64,000 bases of DNA from Candidatus Liptonbacteria bacterium (GTDB lineage Bacteria; Patescibacteriota; Minisyncoccia; UBA6257; 2-01-FULL-56-20): NCBI GenBank assembly GCA_016182105.1, contig JACOXZ010000011.1:1218-65217 (forward strand), read 5' to 3'. The position numbers were made by a program, and so were the translations under genes. How positions within the stretch are numbered: position 1 is the stretch's first letter; the number at the start of each line of letters is the position of its first letter. The notes under the pieces are model-generated. The model saw only the letters and a program-made list of their open reading frames with translations, was not told the origin of the DNA and ran no database searches. Below are positions 5,322 through 59,456 of this stretch, piece by piece.

Positions 5322-5924
5322 ATGAATATCAAAAAACTAGCTGGGTTTACCTTTATCGAAGTCGTGATCGTGATCGCGATTTTCGTGGTGATTTTCACTG
5401 TGATTGCGAGCTTTGGCGAGAATACCAGTTTGCTTTCGAACCTAATAAACAAAAGCTTGCAAGCGGAACAAGACCTAAGGCAGACTTTCCAGGTTATAGT
5501 AACTGAAATCCGTTCAGCAGGGCCCTCAAGTCTTGGCGCCTATCCGATTGAGTCGGCCGCTACTTCGTCTTTCGCTTTTTTCAGCGACATTGACGAGGAC
5601 GGCGTTTTTGAGCGGGTAAGATACTTCGTGGGGACTAGCACGCTCGAGAAAGGAGTGATTGAGCCTATTGGGAACCCATTGGTTTACGCGACCTCGAGCG
5701 AGTCTGTAAAAATAGCAGTTAATTACCTGCTTATGGCCTCGAGTACTTTTGAGTATTATGACGCTAATTACACCGGGCTAGAGGCGTCGCTTAGCACGCC
5801 TATAGACGTAACCAAGATCAGGATCGTTAAAGTCACGGTTACGGCTGACGTTAACCCAGGAGCGGCCCCGAAGCCAGTGACCTTCACCAACATCATTAAC
5901 GTGAGAAATCTTCGAAGCAACTGA
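5322..5924 (+). CDS. pseudopilin / minor pilin (prepilin-type N-terminus)
   Basis: The sequence ...GFTFIEVVIVIAIFVVIF sits near the N-terminus. Confidence 0.6.
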   Translation: MNIKKLAGFTFIEVVIVIAIFVVIFTVIASFGENTSLLSNLINKSLQAEQDLRQTFQVIVTEIRSAGPSSLGAYPIESAATSSFAFFSDIDEDGVFERVRYFVGTSTLEKGVIEPIGNPLVYATSSESVKIAVNYLLMASSTFEYYDANYTGLEASLSTPIDVTKIRIVKVTVTADVNPGAAPKPVTFTNIINVRNLRSN

Positions 5925-6025
5925 TCCCGTTAGAAGCCGCGATCGCGTTGCTAAAACTCCAAATATCTATCAATGTACAGTCATTACAATGAACTCGCCT
6001 AGATCGCGATCTGCTTCTAACGGGA
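5925..6025. repeat. family-1 miniature TIR element, copy E1 (about 101 bp; TIR tcccgttagaagccgcgatcgcg / cgcgatctgcttctaacggga)
   Basis: 22-nt terminal inverted repeats read directly. The internal sequence is homologous to E2, E3 and E4. The element ends at the ATG of the downstream gene. Confidence 0.8.
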
Positions 6026-7497
6026 TGAAGAACAAAAAAGGACAACTTTCGCTTCAGGTTTTGATCTTCGGAGCGGTCTCGATAATCGTTATCAGCGGCT
6101 TTGCGCTTTGGGCTTCATCGTTTTTGAAATTCTCTCTTAGGGATTTCAATAAGACATTAGCTTTCTCAATTTCGGAGGCTGGCATTGAGTATTACCGCTG
6201 GCACCTGGCGCACGCGCCACAGGACTTTCAGGACGGCACTGGCGGCCCCGGCCCTTATGTCCACAACTATTACGACAAAAACGGAATTGTCCTCGGCCAG
6301 TTCAGTTTGGAAATCACCCCGCCAGCCACGGGCTCAACGATCGTAAAAATCAAGAGCACTGGCCAGCTTGCGGCCGACTCGAGTATTCAGAAAATAATTC
6401 AGGTTTCGATGGGCATCCCGTCTTTTGCCAAATACGCGGTCGCGGCCAATGACATCATTCGTTTTGGAGACGGCACAATAGTTTACGGACCGATTCATTC
6501 AAACGGCGGCATCCGGTTCGACGGCTACGCTTATAATTTGATAACCAGCGCCGTAGCCGACTATGACGACCCGGATCACGGCGGCGGCAATGAATTCGGA
6601 GTCCATACTCATCGCAATGAAGGAGGCCAAAGCGGAGTGGATAACAGCTACCGACCCAAAGAAGCGCCGCCGCCGCCAGCTCCCGACCGGCCGGATGTTT
6701 TCGGCGCTGGCCGTGAGTTTCCGGTGCCGGCCGTTGATTTCGTTGGCATTACCCAAGATTTGAGCCAAATCAAAGCCGATGCTCAAACAAACGGTTTTTA
6801 TAGGGCGAGCTCAACGGCTTACGGCTATGAAGTGATTCTTAAAACCGATGACACATTTGACCTTTACCGGGTCAATTCTTTAGTGTCTTCGCCTTCTTCA
6901 AATTGCACTAAATCGCAAGATCAAGCCAATAATCAAGGCGGCTGGGGAACCTGGACTATTAATTCCAAAACCTTATTGGGTAATTATGTTTTTCCGGCCA
7001 ATGGTTTGATATTTTTGGAAGACGATGTTTGGGTGAGAGGACAGGTGGACGGCGGCCGTTTGACCATCGCTTCAGCTCGGTTTCCGGATAATCCCTCAAC
7101 AAGAAGCAGCATTACTTTAAACGACAATCTTTTATATACCGATTACAACGGTCTTGATGCCATCGCTTTAATGGCGCAGAAAAATATCAATGTCGGCTGG
7201 CAGAGCCAAGATATCATCAGAATTGATGGGGCTTTGGTCGCCCAAAACGGCTGGGTGGGAAGATATTATTACAATAGTTTCTGTTCGCCGTACGATTTAA
7301 GAGACACCATTACCACTTACGGGTCGCTCGTCTCAAGCCAGCGCTACGGTTTTGCTTACACTACCGGTGTTCAAACTGTTTCCGGCTATCCGACGAGAAA
7401 CCTAATTTACGATTCCAATTTATTATACGGCCCGCCGCCGAGTTTCCCCTTGACCAGCGATCAGTATACACAAATATCCTGGGACGAAGTAAAATAG
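6025..7497 (+). CDS. pilus-associated protein with pilin-like hydrophobic N-terminus (PilX or minor-pilin-like)
   Basis: Starting at ATG 6025 the protein reads MKNKKGQLSLQVLIFGAVSIIVISGF. The ORF-track start at 5989 lies inside the repeat. Confidence 0.5.
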   Translation: MKNKKGQLSLQVLIFGAVSIIVISGFALWASSFLKFSLRDFNKTLAFSISEAGIEYYRWHLAHAPQDFQDGTGGPGPYVHNYYDKNGIVLGQFSLEITPPATGSTIVKIKSTGQLAADSSIQKIIQVSMGIPSFAKYAVAANDIIRFGDGTIVYGPIHSNGGIRFDGYAYNLITSAVADYDDPDHGGGNEFGVHTHRNEGGQSGVDNSYRPKEAPPPPAPDRPDVFGAGREFPVPAVDFVGITQDLSQIKADAQTNGFYRASSTAYGYEVILKTDDTFDLYRVNSLVSSPSSNCTKSQDQANNQGGWGTWTINSKTLLGNYVFPANGLIFLEDDVWVRGQVDGGRLTIASARFPDNPSTRSSITLNDNLLYTDYNGLDAIALMAQKNINVGWQSQDIIRIDGALVAQNGWVGRYYYNSFCSPYDLRDTITTYGSLVSSQRYGFAYTTGVQTVSGYPTRNLIYDSNLLYGPPPSFPLTSDQYTQISWDEVK

Positions 7498-9076: not shown

Positions 9077-9128
9077 TATAAGGAATTTATCCTTCCGTGG
9101 CCAGCGGCTATATCAAATTTTCGACCTA

Positions 9129-9158
9129 TTGACAAAATAGCTAGTTATAGTATATAAT
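9129..9158 (+). promoter_or_regulatory. sigma70-like promoter (TTGACA, 18-nt spacer, TATAAT) driving cassette A
   Basis: TTGACA at 9129-9134 and TATAAT at 9153-9158. Confidence 0.55.
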
Positions 9159-9317
9159 TAATCTGTTCTTTGATAATTCATATTCTAGTTTTTCAATCGC
9201 ATGAGGCGAGCGTTTAGCGAGTTAGATGAATAGCTCTTTAAGCACTCGCCTTATCACGAGGCGCGTCTCTCTCCGGAGGGAGTCCGGTAAGTTCACAACG
9301 AAAAGGAGAACGACGAT

Positions 9318-10191
9318 GACGACACAGTCGATCACGTCCGTCACAGACGGTCAGAAAAAGCAGTACCTGCGGTTCGTCGAGGACGCCGCCGACAAGGCGC
9401 TCGTGGAGGCCGTTCTCGACAAGGACGGTCTCCAGCGAGTCATCGAGAACGGGGACGACCTGCAGGCGGCCATCGTGGCCAAGCTCAAGGAGCTCTCGGT
9501 CACGAACGAGTACGCTGACGAGGAGGTCGGATCGAACTACGGTTACCTCTCGGGTTATAAGCCCAAGGGTATCGCCGAGCAGATCAAGACCCTCCGCAAG
9601 CTGTTCCCGTCGATCGGTACCGCTGACGAGCAGATCGCCAGCAAGCCGCTTCCCGCCAGTGCCGAGGGATGGTTCGCCATTCCGAGGTACGAGCTGGTCG
9701 CGGCGAGCTACAACGACGCGGTTCTCGCGGTGCTCGAGCTGACCAAGAAGGATCGCAATGGCAAGTTCTACAACTGGTGCGAGGGCCACCTCGGCCCGCA
9801 GTACCTGCACCAGACGGAGCGAGCCGTGCGTTCTCTGAAGAAGATCGGCGAAGAGCAGAAGGGTCACGACATCTTGGTCGTTGCGGCGCAGTTTGGTCTC
9901 CGTCACCGGGGCCGTTCCGTCCGTCGGGCTCGCTCCACTATGAACTCCTCGGAGTTCGGACTCGGCGCGTTCGCGGTCGGGGTCATACTGCTGACCCATC
10001 CCGAGCGTCTGAAGCACTACGATGACCTCTGGATCGACTGCGCAGGAGATGAGTACTCTCCTGACGCCGATGGCCGGTTCGACGAGGCCCCGCTCTTCGA
10101 CTTCGACGACGGCGAGGTGGAGTTCTTCACCCACTGGGTGGGCAATGCCCGCGAGTTCTATGGCTCTGCGTCGGGCTTTCTCCCGCAGTAG
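9318..10191 (+). CDS. GC-rich orphan acidic protein (291 aa), no recognisable family
   Basis: SD aaGGAGaacgacg precedes the ATG. Local GC is about 62% against about 46% in flanking sequence. A hairpin terminator follows. The antisense ORF 9238-10278 is judged to be a GC artefact. Confidence 0.55.
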
Positions 10192-10263
10192 TCGCTCCTC
10201 GAAACCTCGAACGCTTGGGTCTTTCGATCGTTTATCGCTTGATCCCTTGCGTTCGCTACAACT

Positions 10264-10312
10264 GGGGGTTATCCACACGGCACACGTGGATAACCCCTTT
10301 TTCTTTTTTTAA
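10264..10312 (+). terminator. rho-independent terminator
   Basis: Hairpin gggggttatccacacg-gcac-acgtggataacccc followed by a T-run. Confidence 0.75.
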
Positions 10313-10348
10313 TTTTTGATTTTAAGAATTTTCATATACAGCAAATAC

Positions 10349-10462
10349 AATTTCCGCGCGGCTATGAGTCCGAGCGGGCATGGTCTCCGACCGCGATCGG
10401 AGGAGCGCAGGACTCATCGCCAGCGAAGCCGCACGCTGGGCGGCTGAGCGGTAGCGGAAATT
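10349..10462. repeat. GC-rich long hairpin element, copy A (closing inverted repeat aatttccgc/gcggaaatt)
   Basis: Nested inverted repeats. Both ends are homologous to the element at 11882-12150. Confidence 0.6.
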
Positions 10463-10514
10463 ATATTTGCTATATTTAAGCAGATTTCGCATAATTTTAA
10501 ATATCTTTTATGAA

Positions 10515-10629
10515 TCCCGTTAGAAGCCGCGATCGCGTTGCAAATAAATTAAATATCAACCAAATGCGTAATCGTTACAATAAAATAAACCTGCAGACTT
10601 GCGCAAATCGCGATCTGCTTCTAACGGGA
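10515..10629. repeat. family-1 miniature TIR element, copy E2
   Basis: Same 22-nt TIRs as E1. The element ends at ATG 10629. Confidence 0.8.
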
Positions 10630-11870
10630 TGAAATTTCTTTTGATTTTAGGGTCGATTTTAGTGGCGGGCGCGGGCCTCTTTTTTATATTCGGAACTTCC
10701 AAAAATTTAATCATCGAACCCAAGGAAAATCCGCAAGGTGATCTTAACCTGACGCTTCTCCGTGTTCCGGAGCCGCCGCTTCCGACCTCAACCCCGCCTT
10801 CACCGCCCACGGCCGTCGATATCACAAACCAGCCGCCGCTTCAAGACCCGCCCCGGGTAGTCAAGGGAATATATGCAACGAGCTGGTCAGCTGGGTCAGA
10901 AAATAAAATTAAATATTTACTTGACCTTATAGATAAAACCGAACTTAACGCTATCGTCATTGATATAAAAGATTATTCCGGCTACGTGGCCTACAGAACC
11001 GGCATTCCCGAAGTTAGAGCCGCAGGCGCCGAAGACCAGATTCGCATCGCAAAACCAAACGCCCTGCTCAAACGTCTTCACGACAAAAATATCTATGTGA
11101 TCGGCAGGATCTCGGTTTTCCAGGACCCGATCTTAGCCAAAGCCCATCCCGAGTGGGCACTCGTTTCTTCAAGCACTGGCAAGCTCTGGGAAGATCGGAA
11201 AGGGCTCCTCTGGATGGATCCGGCCGCAGAACCAGTCTGGGATTATAATTTGAAGATTGCTAGAGACGCCTTGACGCGGGGTTTTGACGAGATTAACTTC
11301 GACTATATTCGTTTTGCTTCTGACGGCGACCTTAAAAATATTAAATATCCGGTTTGGGACGAGAAATCTTTAAAAAGCACAGTGATTAAGAACTTCTTTT
11401 CCTATTTGCGGAAAAATCTTCCCCAAGCCAAGATCTCCGCTGATCTTTTTGGTCTTGCGACCGTGAATCAAGAGGGCTTAGGCATCGGTCAGATTATAGA
11501 AGATGCTTACGAGTATTTTGATTATGTTTCGCCTATGGTTTATCCTTCACATTATGCTCCGGGATTCAATAACTACAAAAATCCCGCCGAGCACCCTTAT
11601 GAAGTGATTCGTTATTCACTTGATGAGGCTCTTAGACGTTTAGAAAACTATTCAAGCTCCACAAATCTTGAGGTTGGTTTAAAATCCAAACTGCGGCCGT
11701 GGCTCCAGGATTTTAACCTCGGCGCGACTTATGGCCCGGAAATGGTGAGGCGTGAGATTCAAGCCGTGGAAGATTCTTTGAATAGCGCCTCGAGTTCCAA
11801 CGCTTTCGCCGGCTGGCTTCTTTGGGATCCAGCGAATGTCTATACGGCAGCGGCCCTTCAAAACCAATGA
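10629..11870 (+). CDS. exported TIM-barrel glycoside-hydrolase-like protein (GHL/DUF4015-type)
   Basis: Signal/TM MKFLLILGSILVAGAGLFFIF, and a GHL-like core VKGIYATSW...NAIVIDIKD...WMDPA...FDEINFDYIRF. The ORF-track start at 10599 lies inside the repeat. Confidence 0.55.
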   Translation: MKFLLILGSILVAGAGLFFIFGTSKNLIIEPKENPQGDLNLTLLRVPEPPLPTSTPPSPPTAVDITNQPPLQDPPRVVKGIYATSWSAGSENKIKYLLDLIDKTELNAIVIDIKDYSGYVAYRTGIPEVRAAGAEDQIRIAKPNALLKRLHDKNIYVIGRISVFQDPILAKAHPEWALVSSSTGKLWEDRKGLLWMDPAAEPVWDYNLKIARDALTRGFDEINFDYIRFASDGDLKNIKYPVWDEKSLKSTVIKNFFSYLRKNLPQAKISADLFGLATVNQEGLGIGQIIEDAYEYFDYVSPMVYPSHYAPGFNNYKNPAEHPYEVIRYSLDEALRRLENYSSSTNLEVGLKSKLRPWLQDFNLGATYGPEMVRREIQAVEDSLNSASSSNAFAGWLLWDPANVYTAAALQNQ

Positions 11871-15605: not shown

Positions 15606-16886
15606 TTGCTAGACTTTGGTTTTCTTGGTATTCTCTGGTTAATGCTTCAATCTAGACTTTTTACTAAGGTCGCCCGTAACTTCCCAAAAGATGAAGAGGC
15701 GATAAACGCCAAGCTTCTTACGCGGGCGGGGTTTGTGGAGAAAGTTTCGGCGGGTGTATATTCGTTTTTGCCGCTCGGACTTCGCGTGATGCGTAAGATT
15801 GAAACAATTATTCGCGAGGAGATGAACGCGCTAGGTGGAATGGAGATCTTGATGCCCGCGTTGCATCCTAAAGAAAACTGGGAGACGACTGGCCGCTGGA
15901 AGACTTTTGACGTGCTCTATAAAATCAAATCGCGGGAAGGCAAAGAATTTGCCTTGGGTCCGACACACGAAGAAATCGTGGTGCCGCTAGTGGCGAAATT
16001 CGTGAATTCCTACAAAGATTTACCTGTTTATCTTTACCAAATACAGGACAAATTCCGAGATGAACTGCGCGCGAAATCAGGCCTTCTCCGAGGTCGGGAA
16101 TTCTTGATGAAGGACTTATACAGTTTTCATACCTCCGAAGGCGATTTAGACTCTTTTTATGAAAAAATGAAAAAAGTTTATACGAAATTATTTTCCCGAG
16201 CCGGACTAAAAACTAGAATAGTGAAGTCATCCGGCGGCACTTTTTCCAAATATTCTCATGAATTCCAGGTATTGACCCCAGTCGGCGAGGATGCGGTTTT
16301 CTACTGCGAAAAGTGCGATTTTGCCGAAAACAAAGAGATTGCAGAGGTAAAAGAAGGGGACAAATGCCCAAATTGTGCGGGGAAAATAAGGGTAAGCCAG
16401 GGAATTGAGGTCGGCAATATCTTCAAATTAGGCACCAAGTTTTCCAAGGATTTTGAGCTTCTCTATAAAGACGAGAAAGGCAAGGAGAATCATATCTCAA
16501 TCGGCTGTTACGGCATAGGCCTTAGCCGGCTTATGGGCGCCATAGTAGAGATTTTTCATGATGAGCAGGGCATAATTTGGCCGGAGACAGTCGCCCCTTT
16601 TGCTGCGCATCTTATAGAGCTTGGGGAAGGCAAATCCAAAAAGCTCTACCACGATTTACAAAAAGCCGGAATAGATGTACTTTATGACGACAGGAATATA
16701 TCACATGGCGAGAAACTGACAGAAGCGGATCTGATTGGCATACCCCTACGTCTGGTTCAGAGCGAAAAAACCGGCGCGAAGATTGAGGTCAAGCGCCGCG
16801 ACGAGAAAGATTCAAAACTGATGACAGTGTCACAAGTTATAAAATTACTACAACCTACAACCTACAACCTACAAACTATAACCTAA
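15606..16886 (+). CDS. proS: proline--tRNA ligase (short archaeal/eukaryal-type class II)
   Basis: Class II aaRS motifs and a C-terminal zinc CxxC...CxxC. The C-terminus is encoded by an acctacaa word repeat. Confidence 0.75.
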   Translation: MLDFGFLGILWLMLQSRLFTKVARNFPKDEEAINAKLLTRAGFVEKVSAGVYSFLPLGLRVMRKIETIIREEMNALGGMEILMPALHPKENWETTGRWKTFDVLYKIKSREGKEFALGPTHEEIVVPLVAKFVNSYKDLPVYLYQIQDKFRDELRAKSGLLRGREFLMKDLYSFHTSEGDLDSFYEKMKKVYTKLFSRAGLKTRIVKSSGGTFSKYSHEFQVLTPVGEDAVFYCEKCDFAENKEIAEVKEGDKCPNCAGKIRVSQGIEVGNIFKLGTKFSKDFELLYKDEKGKENHISIGCYGIGLSRLMGAIVEIFHDEQGIIWPETVAPFAAHLIELGEGKSKKLYHDLQKAGIDVLYDDRNISHGEKLTEADLIGIPLRLVQSEKTGAKIEVKRRDEKDSKLMTVSQVIKLLQPTTYNLQTIT

Positions 16887-21023: not shown

Positions 21024-21364
21024 TGATTCAAAAATTTATTCGATTTAAAATCACAAGCGCTGCTTTCTTCGCGAGTTTGACACTGGTTTTAAGTGGATGG
21101 CTTTGGGCCTATTTTTCGTTAAGAAATCTCCCGCCACCCTATATTCTTAGGTTTGTGAGCAATCTTGGTGTGACCCAATTAGGCGATCTTCAAGACATTG
21201 CCGCCGCCGGAGCCGTGGCCATGATAAGCGTGCTTTTGAATTTTATACTGGCTTTTGAGCTTGAGACCAAAGCAAAGTTTTTAGCGAAACTCCTGACTTT
21301 TTCAACCCTGACTTTTGCCGCCTTGATTTTCATCGGCTTCGCCGCTATTATTAGCGTCAACTAG
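21023..21364 (+). CDS. hypothetical small membrane protein
   Basis: 113 aa with three hydrophobic segments. The start is supplied by the end of F2-1. Confidence 0.35.
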   Translation: MIQKFIRFKITSAAFFASLTLVLSGWLWAYFSLRNLPPPYILRFVSNLGVTQLGDLQDIAAAGAVAMISVLLNFILAFELETKAKFLAKLLTFSTLTFAALIFIGFAAIISVN

Positions 21365-21445
21365 TGGATAGTGTGCTAGTGACTAGTGACTAGCGCACTA
21401 GCCACCAACGTACTAGTCACTAATGCACTAGTCACTAACTCTCAT

Positions 21446-41264: not shown

Positions 41265-41703
41265 GTTAGGCGATATCCAGAGGCTGCGGGAGGCAACCGG
41301 AGCTGGAGTCATGGAGTGCAAAAAAGCCATAGAAGATGCGGAAGGTGATTTTGACCGAGCAGTAAGTTTGATTCACAAAAGGGGGCTTCTTAAGGTTCAA
41401 AAGCGCAAGGCACGGGAAACCGGAGCCGGACTTATTGAATCCTACGTTCATAATGATAGGATTGGCGTTCTCTTGGATTTGCGGGCTGAGACTGATTTTG
41501 TTGTCCGTTCCGAGCCTTTTCGCCGGCTCTCCCACGAGCTTGCCATGCAGATTGCGGCTCTCGCGCCTCAAAATCTTGAGGAATTATTGAAACAGCCGTA
41601 TATTAAAGATGAATCTAGGACTGTCGAGGATTTAATAAAAGAAGTGATTGCCCTGGTTGGCGAAAACATCCGAGTTAATAAGTTCTATCGTTTAGAACTC
41701 TAA
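41257..41703 (+). CDS. tsf: elongation factor Ts (short form)
   Basis: LREATGAGVMECKKAL-type N-terminus. It overlaps the rpsB stop. Confidence 0.7.
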   Translation: MDKLGDIQRLREATGAGVMECKKAIEDAEGDFDRAVSLIHKRGLLKVQKRKARETGAGLIESYVHNDRIGVLLDLRAETDFVVRSEPFRRLSHELAMQIAALAPQNLEELLKQPYIKDESRTVEDLIKEVIALVGENIRVNKFYRLEL

Positions 41704-42065: not shown

Positions 42066-42153
42066 GCGCAGGTAGTCCCGTAGGGGGCGGGAGTGGTCTG
42101 TAAAACCATTGCCCATCTGGGCCCCGTGAGTTCGACTCTCACCCTGCGCACCA
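42066..42153 (+). tRNA. tRNA-Tyr (anticodon GUA), class II with a long variable arm, CCA encoded
   Basis: Acceptor gcgcagg/cctgcgc, anticodon loop CUGUAAA, variable arm gccca-tc-tgggc, T arm gtgag-ttcgact-ctcac, then ACCA. Confidence 0.65.
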
Positions 42154-42393
42154 CGTTGGAAAAGTCAATGCCTCGCGGCGCGGAACGCGCCGCTCGGCGA
42201 CCAAATCGTAAGGATTTTTCGGGGCAAAAAGAAATTCCCGATTCCATTAAAAGCAGAAAAGAAAAATTTTTCAAACACTCCCAAGAGGTGGCAAGCCGCC
42301 TCTTGACTTTTGTGACGTAATATGCTATCTTTAGGTGAAATCTGGGCATAGTGCTTAAATGGAATCAAATCGTACCTTGAAAGGAGAAAGACG

Positions 42394-42558
42394 ATGTACA
42401 ATATCACACGGCCGTTGTTCGGAGGAATGGCCATTCCCGCCCCTTTCTTTGCCATGAATGCGGACAGTTCAGAGAAGGCGTTGGCATGGGTCGGGTATGG
42501 CATCATCTTCGCCCTGCTCTCTCTCGTGTCGGCTGTCGCCGCTCGCGACGAGAAGTAA
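42394..42558 (+). CDS. GC-rich 54-aa hydrophobic peptide (cassette B ORF)
   Basis: SD aaaGGAGaaagacg precedes the ATG. Hydrophobic stretch ALAWVGYGIIFALLSLVSAVAA. Followed by a terminator. Confidence 0.4.
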   Translation: MYNITRPLFGGMAIPAPFFAMNADSSEKALAWVGYGIIFALLSLVSAVAARDEK

Positions 42559-42580
42559 GCAGACCTTTCTTCGTGCCATA

Positions 42581-42617
42581 ACGGGGATTCGCGCAACGCG
42601 GTCCCCGTTTCTTTTTT
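42581..42617 (+). terminator. rho-independent terminator of cassette B
   Basis: Hairpin acggggattcgcgcaacgcggtccccgt followed by a T-run and the conserved AT-rich linker. Confidence 0.65.
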
Positions 42618-42672
42618 AATTTTTGATTTAAAAGTTTTCATAAAAGAATTTGCCGCCAAAGAAAAACTTGAA

Positions 42673-42832
42673 ATTGTCAGCGGTGCGGCTCCCCGATACC
42701 ATCCGCCTTCGGCGGAGCTACGGGGCAGGCCGCCGCATTTTCGGATTTTCGCGGGGGGCTTTCCTCGCTCCGACGTTACGTCGGAGCGAAATGCGCTGTG
42801 CCCCGTAGTAAGCTTTGCTTTACTACTGGGGT
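42673..42832. repeat. GC-rich structured element of cassette B (multiple hairpins, e.g. cgctccgacg-ttac-gtcggagcg)
   Basis: It occupies the same position relative to the AT linker as element A. Sequence similarity to A and C is weak. Confidence 0.4.
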
Positions 42833-53211: not shown

Positions 53212-53225
53212 GCAACTGAGCGTTG

Positions 53226-53341
53226 TCCCGTTAGAAGCCGCGATCGCTTTGGGTAATGCATAGTTGTTTGCCGTATGGATAGTCATTGTTATACATCGCT
53301 ATAGTCCACATATCACTGATCGCGATCTGTTTCTAACGGGA
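53226..53341. repeat. family-1 miniature TIR element, copy E3
   Basis: Same TIRs as E1 and E2. Flanked by cgttg on both sides. Confidence 0.8.
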
Positions 53342-53383
53342 CGTTGCTATCTTTCTAAGGTGCGGGGTAAAATAGAGATATAA

Positions 53384-59018: not shown

Positions 59019-59087
59019 CTTTTAGCTGATAGCTTTTAGAAGTAAAATAACTAAAAGCTAAAAGCTGTAACCTAAAAGCTAGTAATT

Positions 59088-59456
59088 ATGTATATCGAAT
59101 CATTTAAACAATTGACAGTTTGGCAAAAATCGATCCAATTAGTGAAAGAAATTTATAGGGTGACAGACAAATTTCCTGCCTCGGAGATGTACGGCTTAGT
59201 AAGTCAGATGAGAAGAGCGGCAATATCAATTCCTTCAAATATTGCCGAGGGCAAAAAAAGGAAAACGAAGAAAGATTTTCTGCAATTTCTAAGAATAGCC
59301 GATGGTTCCGCCGCTGAGCTAGAGACCCAAATTATTATTGCAAAAGAATTATTTCCAAAATTAGACTTTTCTAAGACAGTATCATTACTAGAGGAGATCC
59401 AAAAAATGTTAATAACCATAATCAAAAAGTTTGAAGGAAATGGTCATGCTGACTAG
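59088..59456 (+). CDS. four-helix-bundle protein of the 23S-rRNA-IVS / DGR Avd-like family
   Basis: 122 aa. WQKSIQLVKEIYRVT...AISIPSNIAEG is typical of this family. Flanked by aaaagct repeats. Confidence 0.6.
   Translation: MYIESFKQLTVWQKSIQLVKEIYRVTDKFPASEMYGLVSQMRRAAISIPSNIAEGKKRKTKKDFLQFLRIADGSAAELETQIIIAKELFPKLDFSKTVSLLEEIQKMLITIIKKFEGNGHAD

Follow-up and report, generated by a model that had tools for sequence, protein, structure and literature searches.

A probable stand-alone target gene of a Patescibacteria-specific diversity-generating retroelement clade in Candidatus Liptonbacteria

INTRODUCTION

Diversity-generating retroelements (DGRs) pair a template repeat (TR) with a variable region (VR) in a target gene, and mismatches between TR and VR that fall on adenines of the TR are the hallmark of such an element. 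A DGR clade restricted to the candidate phyla radiation (CPR, Patescibacteria), whose targets have no recognisable domains, has been described (Roux et al. 2021, clade 2; PMC8144416). A further survey treats a CPR set, VR classes UVR1-6 of unknown fold and remote targets, and in it remote targets are not typical of CPR DGRs (Wu et al. 2018; PMC5758913). Here we analysed a stretch of 64,000 nucleotides from a Candidatus Liptonbacteria bacterium (assembly GCA_016182105.1, contig JACOXZ010000011.1; hereafter the window, with positions counted from its first letter), in which an open reading frame (ORF) at 9316-10191 encodes a 291-aa protein with a VR-bearing C-terminus. A sequence-only reading of the window had presented this ORF as an orphan within a foreign-looking cassette and as part of an undescribed mobile or accessory module. 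We found that the gene belongs to a family of DGR target genes, and the cassette around it, at 9129-10312 (cassette A), is very probably a stand-alone target gene copy of a Patescibacteria-specific DGR clade.

RESULTS

The 291-aa gene belongs to a family of DGR target genes

The 291-aa protein had a 100% match in HYT13_01540, from a metagenome-assembled genome (MAG) of Candidatus Liptonbacteria. In public databases, both this protein and most of its homologues are named only as hypothetical. More than 2,840 homologues at 60-79% identity were found, so the ORF is not an orphan. There were 238 matches among species-representative genomes, the family formed 2,023 clusters at 50% identity, and nearly all homologues with a named source or record title came from Patescibacteria. 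No model of the curated libraries Pfam, NCBIfam, PHROGs and PADLOC matched the protein; the earlier statement that it belongs to no recognised family is therefore right for these libraries, but it does not hold against thousands of homologues, mostly from Patescibacteria.

For comparison within the family, 80 loci carrying homologues (labelled L001 and so on) were examined, and the counts of related loci given below refer to them unless another number is stated. The family alignment was highly conserved except at residues ~254-281. An entropy of at least 2.5 bits was reached in eight columns, all of them within the VR (residues 257, 262, 264, 267, 273, 277, 279, and 281), and in the TR consensus of the family the hypervariable residues corresponded to AAC, AAT, and AAG codons. 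This consensus aligned to positions 10060-10189 of the window with 74% identity, and in our reading of the alignment the variable codons of the window copy would be explained by A-to-N changes of a family-typical TR.

An adenine-rich TR was present within 4 kb of the gene in 42 of the 80 related loci, while a reverse transcriptase (RT) match was obtained in 38, with Avd matches in a largely overlapping set. Across 24 cognate TR/VR pairs, 412 of the 423 mismatches fell on TR adenines. Two contrary outcomes, namely TR/VR pairs without an adenine bias and variability spread evenly along the protein, were tested and both were ruled out. Because of the adenine bias of the TR/VR pairs, the linkage to RT and Avd and the C-terminal hypervariability in relatives, the ORF that had looked orphan and foreign is read as a DGR target, and the family of the 291-aa gene is a family of DGR target genes.

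The complete cassettes of the relatives showed two gene orders, either target, TR, avd (on the reverse strand) and RT, or a divergent arrangement of RT, avd and TR upstream of the target. L020 had the canonical order target, TR, avd and RT; its Avd scored 84.6 bits with NCBIfam DivGenRetAVD (cutoff 80) and 64.4 bits with Pfam bAvd (cutoff 40), and its RT matched RVT_1 with 94 bits. A full DGR was also present in L001, the nearest relative with genomic context (74% identical). Many related loci carried a noncoding RNA of ~400 nt starting 130-150 nt past the stop codon, and in the relatives this RNA lay 3ʹ of the target or divergently 5ʹ of it. Its 3ʹ part repeated the final ~130 nt of the gene in adenine-rich form, with the TR of the relatives reading PDADGDFSNAPYFNFNDGKVKFDTNWVDNANDNYGSASGFVPK. 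The constant tail of the VR was kept in the alignment, ending in ..CCGCAGTA in VRs and ..CCGAAGTC in TRs, and the TR/VR homology stopped at the stop codon.

The 5ʹ domain of the DGR RNA, ~250 nt in length, was structured and conserved and began with GAGnyTAGGCTAATG (for example, L020 5041-5297 and L065 3792-4052). Compensatory changes occurred in 32 of its 54 predicted pairs, and a search of Rfam with this domain gave no family, just a partial 27-bit match to RT-7.

Several loci departed from a single target per cassette, with tandem duplicated target genes in L053 (135-2900), L051, L063, and L078. Truncated 5ʹ ends of the DGR RNA lay between the duplicated targets of L053, which hints at recombination within the DGR RNA gene. 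Separately, a LOOT RNA (RF03000) adjoined the DGR cassette in L001, L003, L018, L020, L046, L050, L065, and L067, on one side or the other and in some cases as an inverted pair. Among the loci scanned, 7 of 16 DGR-linked ones carried it versus 1 of 18 solo loci (those with no TR nearby), which suggests an undescribed link between LOOT RNA and CPR DGRs.

Layout of the cassette

The features of the window copy and its immediate surroundings are as follows, where cassette B is a second locus of the window, at 42154-42832, treated further below.

9129-9158, + strand: sigma-70 promoter; TTGACA at 9129-9134, 18-nt spacer, TATAAT at 9153-9158; 12 of 12 consensus matches
9165-9173, + strand: GTTCTTTGA motif just 3ʹ of the -10 box; probable 5ʹ end of the transcript
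9193-9318, + strand: structured 5ʹ leader, from covariation and a covariance model
about 9197-9259, + strand: P1 hairpin of the leader, 24 bp; 93% paired, compensatory changes in 21 of 24 pairs
9247-9251 (CGCCU) with 9259-9263 (AGGCG), + strand: alternative helix of the leader, 5 bp; 90% paired, compensatory changes in 4 of 5 pairs
9273-9287, + strand: P3 hairpin of the leader structure, CCGGAGCGAUUCCGG (CCGGA..UCCGG)
9304-9308, + strand: ribosome-binding site AGGAG, read from the sequence
9316-10191, + strand: DGR variable (target) protein gene, 291 aa, start codon at 9316, from homology
10060-10158, + strand: VR; the hypervariable codons are those of residues 254-281 (10075-10158)
10159-10191, + strand: constant A-poor, GC-rich 3ʹ end of the VR, TATGGCTCTGCGTCGGGCTTTCTCCCGCAGTAG; counterpart of the initiation of mutagenic homing (IMH) site
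10192-10256, + strand: 3ʹ untranslated region (3ʹUTR) with a YTTGR/CTCGA pentamer array of 8-9 nt period, conserved in ~60 loci
10265-10312, + strand: intrinsic-terminator-like hairpin, GGGGTTATCCAC / GTGGATAACCCC, then a T-run, from the inverted repeat and its fold
10305-10336, + strand: AT-rich block common to cassette B (exact 18-nt match), outside the conserved cassette
10336-10475, strand unassigned: GC-rich palindrome of 140 nt with 22-nt inverted arms, outside the conserved cassette

As a description of parts, the sequence-only reading was accurate. The near-consensus promoter, the long leader (~150 nt in total, from the promoter to the ATG at 9316), the ribosome-binding site, the strong terminator at 10265-10312, and the AT-rich block and GC-rich hairpin beyond it are all present. 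TTGACA/TATAAT-like promoters were also seen upstream of most homologues on inspection of the loci. The target ORF is intact and, according to the alignment, keeps all family-invariant residues. A long antisense ORF at 9238-10278 was regarded as a by-product of the GC-richness of the region.

By domain search, the flanking genes in the window are dnaX and a DUF4015 glycosyl-hydrolase-like gene. Neither dnaX nor a DUF4015 gene stood beside the homologue in any of the 80 related loci, indicating that the genomic location of the target gene is not conserved.

The target protein

The protein is acidic and apparently cytoplasmic. It shows neither a signal peptide nor a transmembrane segment, and no Pfam domain could be recognised in it. 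Its AlphaFold2 model (mean pLDDT 81) has a predicted architecture of an N-terminal helical region followed by an alpha/beta domain that bears the VR. A profile search of PDB sequences with the protein gave no match, and a Foldseek search of the PDB with the model gave no significant one. For the latter reason, the assignment of a lectin-like fold to the C-terminal domain is only suggestive.

A conserved leader RNA and 3ʹUTR accompany the target gene

The sequence between the promoter and the start codon is a conserved structured RNA. The P1 hairpin and the alternative helix exclude each other, as the 3ʹ strand of P1 (CCUC) pairs with a downstream GAGG that mimics the 5ʹ strand of P1. The covariation observed in the leader was reached in 0 of 500 shuffles, and it collapsed in slid controls. 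With the covariance model, R1, the window leader scored 84 bits (E 3e-19), and an R1 leader lay upstream of the target in ~50 of 81 searched loci, a number that includes 35 loci from the alignment used for training. No convincing second R1 leader was found in the window, where a weak match at 21331-21445 (24 bits) was taken as noise. Rfam had no family for the leader at 9193-9318, the best hit being Plastid-psbJ-2 with 21.8 bits where 65.6 are required (E 0.24), and a scan of the whole window at gathering thresholds returned tRNAs only. Of 72 related loci, 27 had a short GTTCTTTNA motif in the 250 nt upstream, compared with a background of 0.01 per 250 nt; it follows the -10 box and lies ~120-157 nt or ~20-27 nt before the ATG. 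Since the 3ʹ strand of P1 can pair alternatively with the downstream GAGG mimic, the leader is most likely a switch on access to the ribosome-binding site, or else a stabiliser of the mRNA.

The region after the stop codon is conserved as well. In ~60 loci the interval from the stop codon to the terminator held six to eight YTTGR pentamers at a spacing of 8-9 nt. In the window, the array can fold as a hairpin with arms at 10208-10219 and 10244-10255, and the fold of 10186-10312 had a z-score of -5.9. The arms of the terminator, 12 bp each (10265-10276 and 10286-10297), are followed by a T-run, and the automatic scan had missed it only because its loop is 9 nt. Many homologous loci have the same stem sequence, GGGGTTATCCACA, which resembles a DnaA box; the DnaA-box consensus TTATCCACA contained in it occurs only twice in the window. 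The pentamer array is missing after the TR copy, which is followed by a different terminator. In the sequences compared, the array and the hairpins thus tell the recipient VR from the donor TR, and because they are found after the VR and are absent after the TR, they probably label the VR as the recipient.

The GC excess is confined to the target gene

The GC content of the window ORF was 62.2% against 47.6% for the window, in agreement with the sequence-only reading, which had described a block of ~62% GC in a poorer genome and had asked for a comparison of codon usage. In that comparison, the GC content at third codon positions (GC3) was 0.83 for the target gene and 0.519 +/- 0.054 for 61 window ORFs, making the target (~+5.7 standard deviations) the only strong outlier among them. 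Within the window gene, 96% of AAR, GAR, and CAR codons ended in G, compared with 47% in the other window genes.

The excess is found throughout the family. The GC content of the ORF exceeded that of its flanks, which varied from 29% to 56%, by 6-27 points in 79 of 80 loci, and mean GC3 was 0.72 for targets versus 0.42 for flanking ORFs. In 36 complete cassettes, GC3 was 0.72, 0.42, and 0.43 for target, RT, and Avd, respectively. The excess was uniform along the target gene and equal in solo and linked copies. At four-fold sites the bias was asymmetric, with adenine depleted: the fractions of A, T, C, and G were 0.09, 0.22, 0.42, and 0.27 in the target, and 0.23, 0.32, 0.23, and 0.22 in the RT. 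As the excess is independent of the host while RT and Avd remain host-like, the GC-richness belongs to the target gene alone and is not that of a foreign island, contrary to the first impression. High expression was also considered as its cause and was set aside, since no other window gene exceeded GC3 0.65, including genes that we take, from reading their translations, to be MreB-like, EF-P-like, and S2-like.

A solo copy that is probably served in trans

The course proposed for this gene follows steps of established DGR biology, as laid out in PMC5758913 and PMC6182149. Transcription would begin at the perfect sigma-70 promoter and proceed through the leader with its mutually exclusive helices. 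The RT-Avd complex would copy the TR RNA into cDNA with misincorporation opposite adenines, and this cDNA would replace the VR, anchored at the constant GC-rich 3ʹ end, which corresponds to the IMH. In this way some dozen AAY/AAG-derived codons would be rewritten, on the surface of a putative lectin-like C-terminal domain. The pentamer array and hairpins, which stand after the VR and not the TR, would probably designate the VR as recipient.

The window copy stands apart from such a core. No second VR, TR, RT or Avd was found in the 64-kb window by tblastn with the family RT and Avd and by blastn with the VR and TR consensus, and the locus therefore fails as a self-contained DGR cassette. Solo copies are common, as 38 of the 80 related loci had no TR within +/-4 kb, that is, about half of the copies. 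In close pairs of solo copies, identity was 90-92% over the gene body and 94-97% over the constant tail but only 77-81% over the variable segment. The same pattern was seen in DGR-linked pairs (98% for the body, 79% for the variable segment, and 100% for the tail in L027/L030), and over all close locus pairs the tail was 94-100% identical versus 71-86% for the variable segment. The faster divergence of the VR than of the gene body in solo pairs, as in linked pairs, suggests present or recent diversification of solo copies in trans. The window gene is probably an intact remote target, on which a DGR core located elsewhere in the genome would act in trans.

Several points weigh against this assignment. 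No TR, RT or Avd lies in the window, which covers 9 kb upstream and 54 kb downstream of the gene, and DGR action on this particular copy is therefore putative. Among the best 120 matches to a related RT, none was from the same MAG. The functions given to the leader and the 3ʹUTR elements are drawn solely from their conservation, and the DGR model offers no explanation for a GC3 excess that extends over the whole gene.

The first of these points would also suit a fossil target, in which the DGR core has been lost from the genome, the VR is frozen and the protein serves as a binding protein of fixed specificity. We regard this as possible but distinctly less probable than service in trans. It would account for a window empty of TR, Avd, and RT and for the same-MAG RT missing from the 120 best matches; the 38 related loci that also have no TR within +/-4 kb fit it, as does the description of CPR DGRs, in PMC5758913, as having mostly single adjacent targets. 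However, the ORF of the window copy is intact with all family-invariant residues kept, and the copy shares with DGR-linked ones a conserved promoter, leader, IMH-like end, pentamer array, and set of hairpins. The VR-specific divergence of solo pairs, which matches that of linked pairs, also speaks against a frozen VR, and DGR cores are known to act in trans, as the same source states (PMC5758913).

A bolder account joins the solo copies to the leader and the base composition. The promoter, leader, ORF, and 3ʹUTR would together form an autonomous target module spreading and persisting in Patescibacteria independently of the RT core, the leader would be an undescribed RNA switch controlling production of the variable protein, and the loss of synonymous adenines along the gene would be the footprint of, or an adaptation to, an adenine-mutagenic RT acting on the target transcript beyond the TR. 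We consider this account unlikely. The leader RNA, which looks like a switch, the prevalence of solo targets, and the target-specific composition are the parts worth pursuing.

The linker and palindrome lie outside the conserved cassette

The AT-rich block beyond the terminator contains an 18-nt exact match, TTTTTTAATTTTTGATTT, to 42612-42629, in addition to TTTTCATA, and 0 of 100 shuffles gave as many matches. The palindrome that follows has arms at 10336-10357 and 10454-10475, and its folding z-scores are -5.4 (+ strand) and -7.5 (- strand). The AT block is overlapped at 10322-10351 by a weak promoter-like site (TTAAGA, 18 nt, TACAAT), and a small transcript of the palindrome may therefore arise.

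Among its grounds for abandoning its proposal, the sequence-only reading had named linker and hairpin being absent from, or not co-located with, homologous genes in related genomes. Neither showed similarity to any of the 80 related loci, and the palindrome was absent from L081, the closest relative at 79% identity, as was the linker, so that by this criterion the module of ORF and hairpin RNA fails. Beyond its own two arms, the palindrome had no copies in the window, and a metagenome scan gave 52 single-arm matches, about the chance estimate for an 18-mer, and 0 paired matches.

REP-like repeats (GTCAACGTGGCAGGTTGACGTGGCAGG) were seen in L081 inside the leader and after the terminator (340-410 and 1440-1500). 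A gene with an HUH-like MPNHYHLL motif lies beside these repeats and was taken as IS200/RAYT-like.

A number of known elements were considered for the palindrome and rejected. Neither LOOT RNA (RF03000, gathering threshold 46.4 bits), for which 9080-10660 was scanned, nor any other Rfam family matched the palindrome even at E <= 10. True LOOT RNAs do take the place of the palindrome after the terminator in L001, L003, L018, and L067, with related loci scoring 63-86 bits. LOOT is a GC-rich structured RNA of ~120 nt and has the same position after the target terminator, but the window element is a simple long palindrome instead. With miniature inverted-repeat transposable elements (MITEs) and repetitive extragenic palindromic (REP)-like elements it shares 22-nt terminal inverted arms, an AT-rich intergenic position, and a stable fold on both strands. 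Unlike these, it is a single copy in 64 kb with no paired copies in the metagenome collection, so that a MITE was rejected, and it shows no clear target-site duplication. An integron attC site, as an explanation of ORF and hairpin together, failed because the arms ATACAGCAAATACAATTTCCGC and GCGGAAATTATATTTGCTATAT have no GTTRRRY or RYYYAAC cores and the neighbours are dnaX and the DUF4015 gene. The palindrome is not part of a DGR RNA, as it has no similarity to any of the 80 loci; a retron RNA was dismissed because there is no RT in the window, and an IS110 bridge RNA or TnpB omega-RNA because domains of the DEDD, TnpB or related types are missing.

In the stretch 42066-42832, tRNA-Tyr is immediately followed by cassette B, which consists of a promoter-like site, a 54-aa hydrophobic ORF (GC3 0.72), a terminator, the AT motif, and two GC-rich hairpins (fold z-score -4.8). 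The claim that the architecture of cassette A recurs here is right only loosely, as far as the small ORF, terminator, AT motif, and GC-rich hairpins go; sequence homology between A and B is limited to the 18-nt AT motif and the context of the ribosome-binding site. The ORF of cassette B had only three homologues, and Rfam at E-value thresholds gave only noise and tRNAs for this locus. A paralogous module was rejected on these grounds. A relative of cassette B (L082 1-470) keeps the order tRNA, ORF, terminator, and TTTTTTTATTTTTGATTTAAGAATTT, and T-run plus ATTTTTGATT sequences follow terminators in L082 and L026. Because the relative of cassette B keeps the same order, the AT motif looks like a lineage-typical post-terminator sequence and not a module junction.

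These results leave little room for an undescribed mobile module made of ORF, linker, and GC-rich hairpin RNA and recurring as cassettes A, B, and C, which we judge very improbable. The hairpin does fold far better than shuffled sequences, a weak promoter-like site stands directly 5ʹ of it, the AT motif is shared with cassette B beyond chance, and the context of the target gene is not syntenic. On the other side, linker and hairpin are missing from 80 of 80 homologous loci and from L081, the arms occur once in the window, the metagenome matches are single-arm and about as many as chance would give, the ORF of cassette B is unrelated with its three homologues, and cassettes A and B have nothing in common beyond the AT motif. 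What survives of the proposal is an accessory, retroelement-derived gene that in relatives is coupled to a structured RNA; that RNA is the DGR RNA with its TR and is distinct from linker and hairpin, and the system is of a known kind, the DGR, rather than an undescribed module.

Least credible of all is a foreign gene recently acquired from a high-GC donor and unrelated to any retroelement: the 15-point GC excess and GC3 of 0.83 in a genome of 47.6% GC and the variable genomic context would fit it, but an excess of +6 to +27 points recurs in 79 of 80 loci despite just 50-79% protein identity, RT and Avd in the same cassettes have GC3 of 0.42-0.43, and nearly all named homologues are from Patescibacteria.

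Other repeats and an inserted gene in the window

An inverted-repeat family, ATCCCGTTAGAAGCCGCGATCGCG and CGCGATCTGCTTCTAACGGGAT separated by an AT-rich spacer of ~75 nt, occurs at 5916-6029, 10506-10633, 53217-53345, and 60555-~60680. In the two copies read closely, at 5916-6029 and 10506-10633, the right arm runs into the downstream start codon, and for those at 53217-53345 and 60555, too, a gene begins shortly downstream. Pilin-like genes, a response regulator, and the DUF4015 gene make up the genes behind these repeats, with functions read partly from translations, and this placement suggests a cis-regulatory or mobile element.

The gene at 59088-59456 is AT-rich (GC3 0.34) and encodes a four-helix bundle of the 23S_rRNA_IVP family, a distant relative of Avd. 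It was rejected as an Avd because it belongs to 23S_rRNA_IVP and scored below the Avd cutoff. Direct repeats of 31 nt, CTAAAAGCTAAAAGCT.., flank it at 59051 and 59461, as if it had been inserted among pilin-like genes. Repeats of the CTAAAACCT/CTAAAAGCT type, ~31 nt long and in short arrays, were found at 16848, 39611, 41700, 59051, and 59461; the copy at 41700 is just upstream of an ATG, and the last two are those flanking the 59088-59456 gene.

DISCUSSION

A profile built from the present alignment would label thousands of Patescibacteria genes. Solo target copies make up about half of all copies, and their VRs still diverge faster than the gene body. Three side observations, namely the solo targets, the leader RNA, and the GC3 excess of the target, leave the classification unchanged. 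They offer directly testable leads on how expression and mutagenesis of variable proteins are controlled in unculturable organisms. In a keyword search of the DGR surveys PMC8144416 and PMC5758913, no mention of a 5ʹ leader, a pentamer array or a target-specific GC3 excess was found.

Compared with Mtd of Bordetella phage BPP-1 and TvpA of Treponema denticola, the gene is alike in having its VR at the extreme C-terminus, in variation limited to adenine-containing TR codons, and in a constant GC-rich, IMH-like end followed by inverted repeats. It is unlike them in that there is no sequence similarity, the fold match is marginal, and the window protein is acidic and apparently cytoplasmic. The VR is followed by a pentamer array and two hairpins and not by a single short GC hairpin, and the TR RNA of the relatives has a large structured domain 5ʹ of the TR. 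With remote DGR targets of the Treponema and Legionella type, the gene shares a VR far from, or without, a neighbouring RT, and diversification in trans is documented for DGRs (PMC5758913); the case differs in that the trans-acting core was not found within the 64 kb examined.

The likeness is greatest with the targets of the CPR-restricted DGR clade. The window copy differs in having no TR, Avd or RT within 64 kb. Its family agrees with that clade in the Patescibacteria hosts, in a C-terminal VR whose template is a neighbouring TR with AAC codons, in Avd and an RT of ~349 aa in the cassette, and in targets with no Pfam domain, signal peptide or transmembrane segment. This clade is the closest known group, and at the level of its family the 291-aa gene has the features that define a DGR target.

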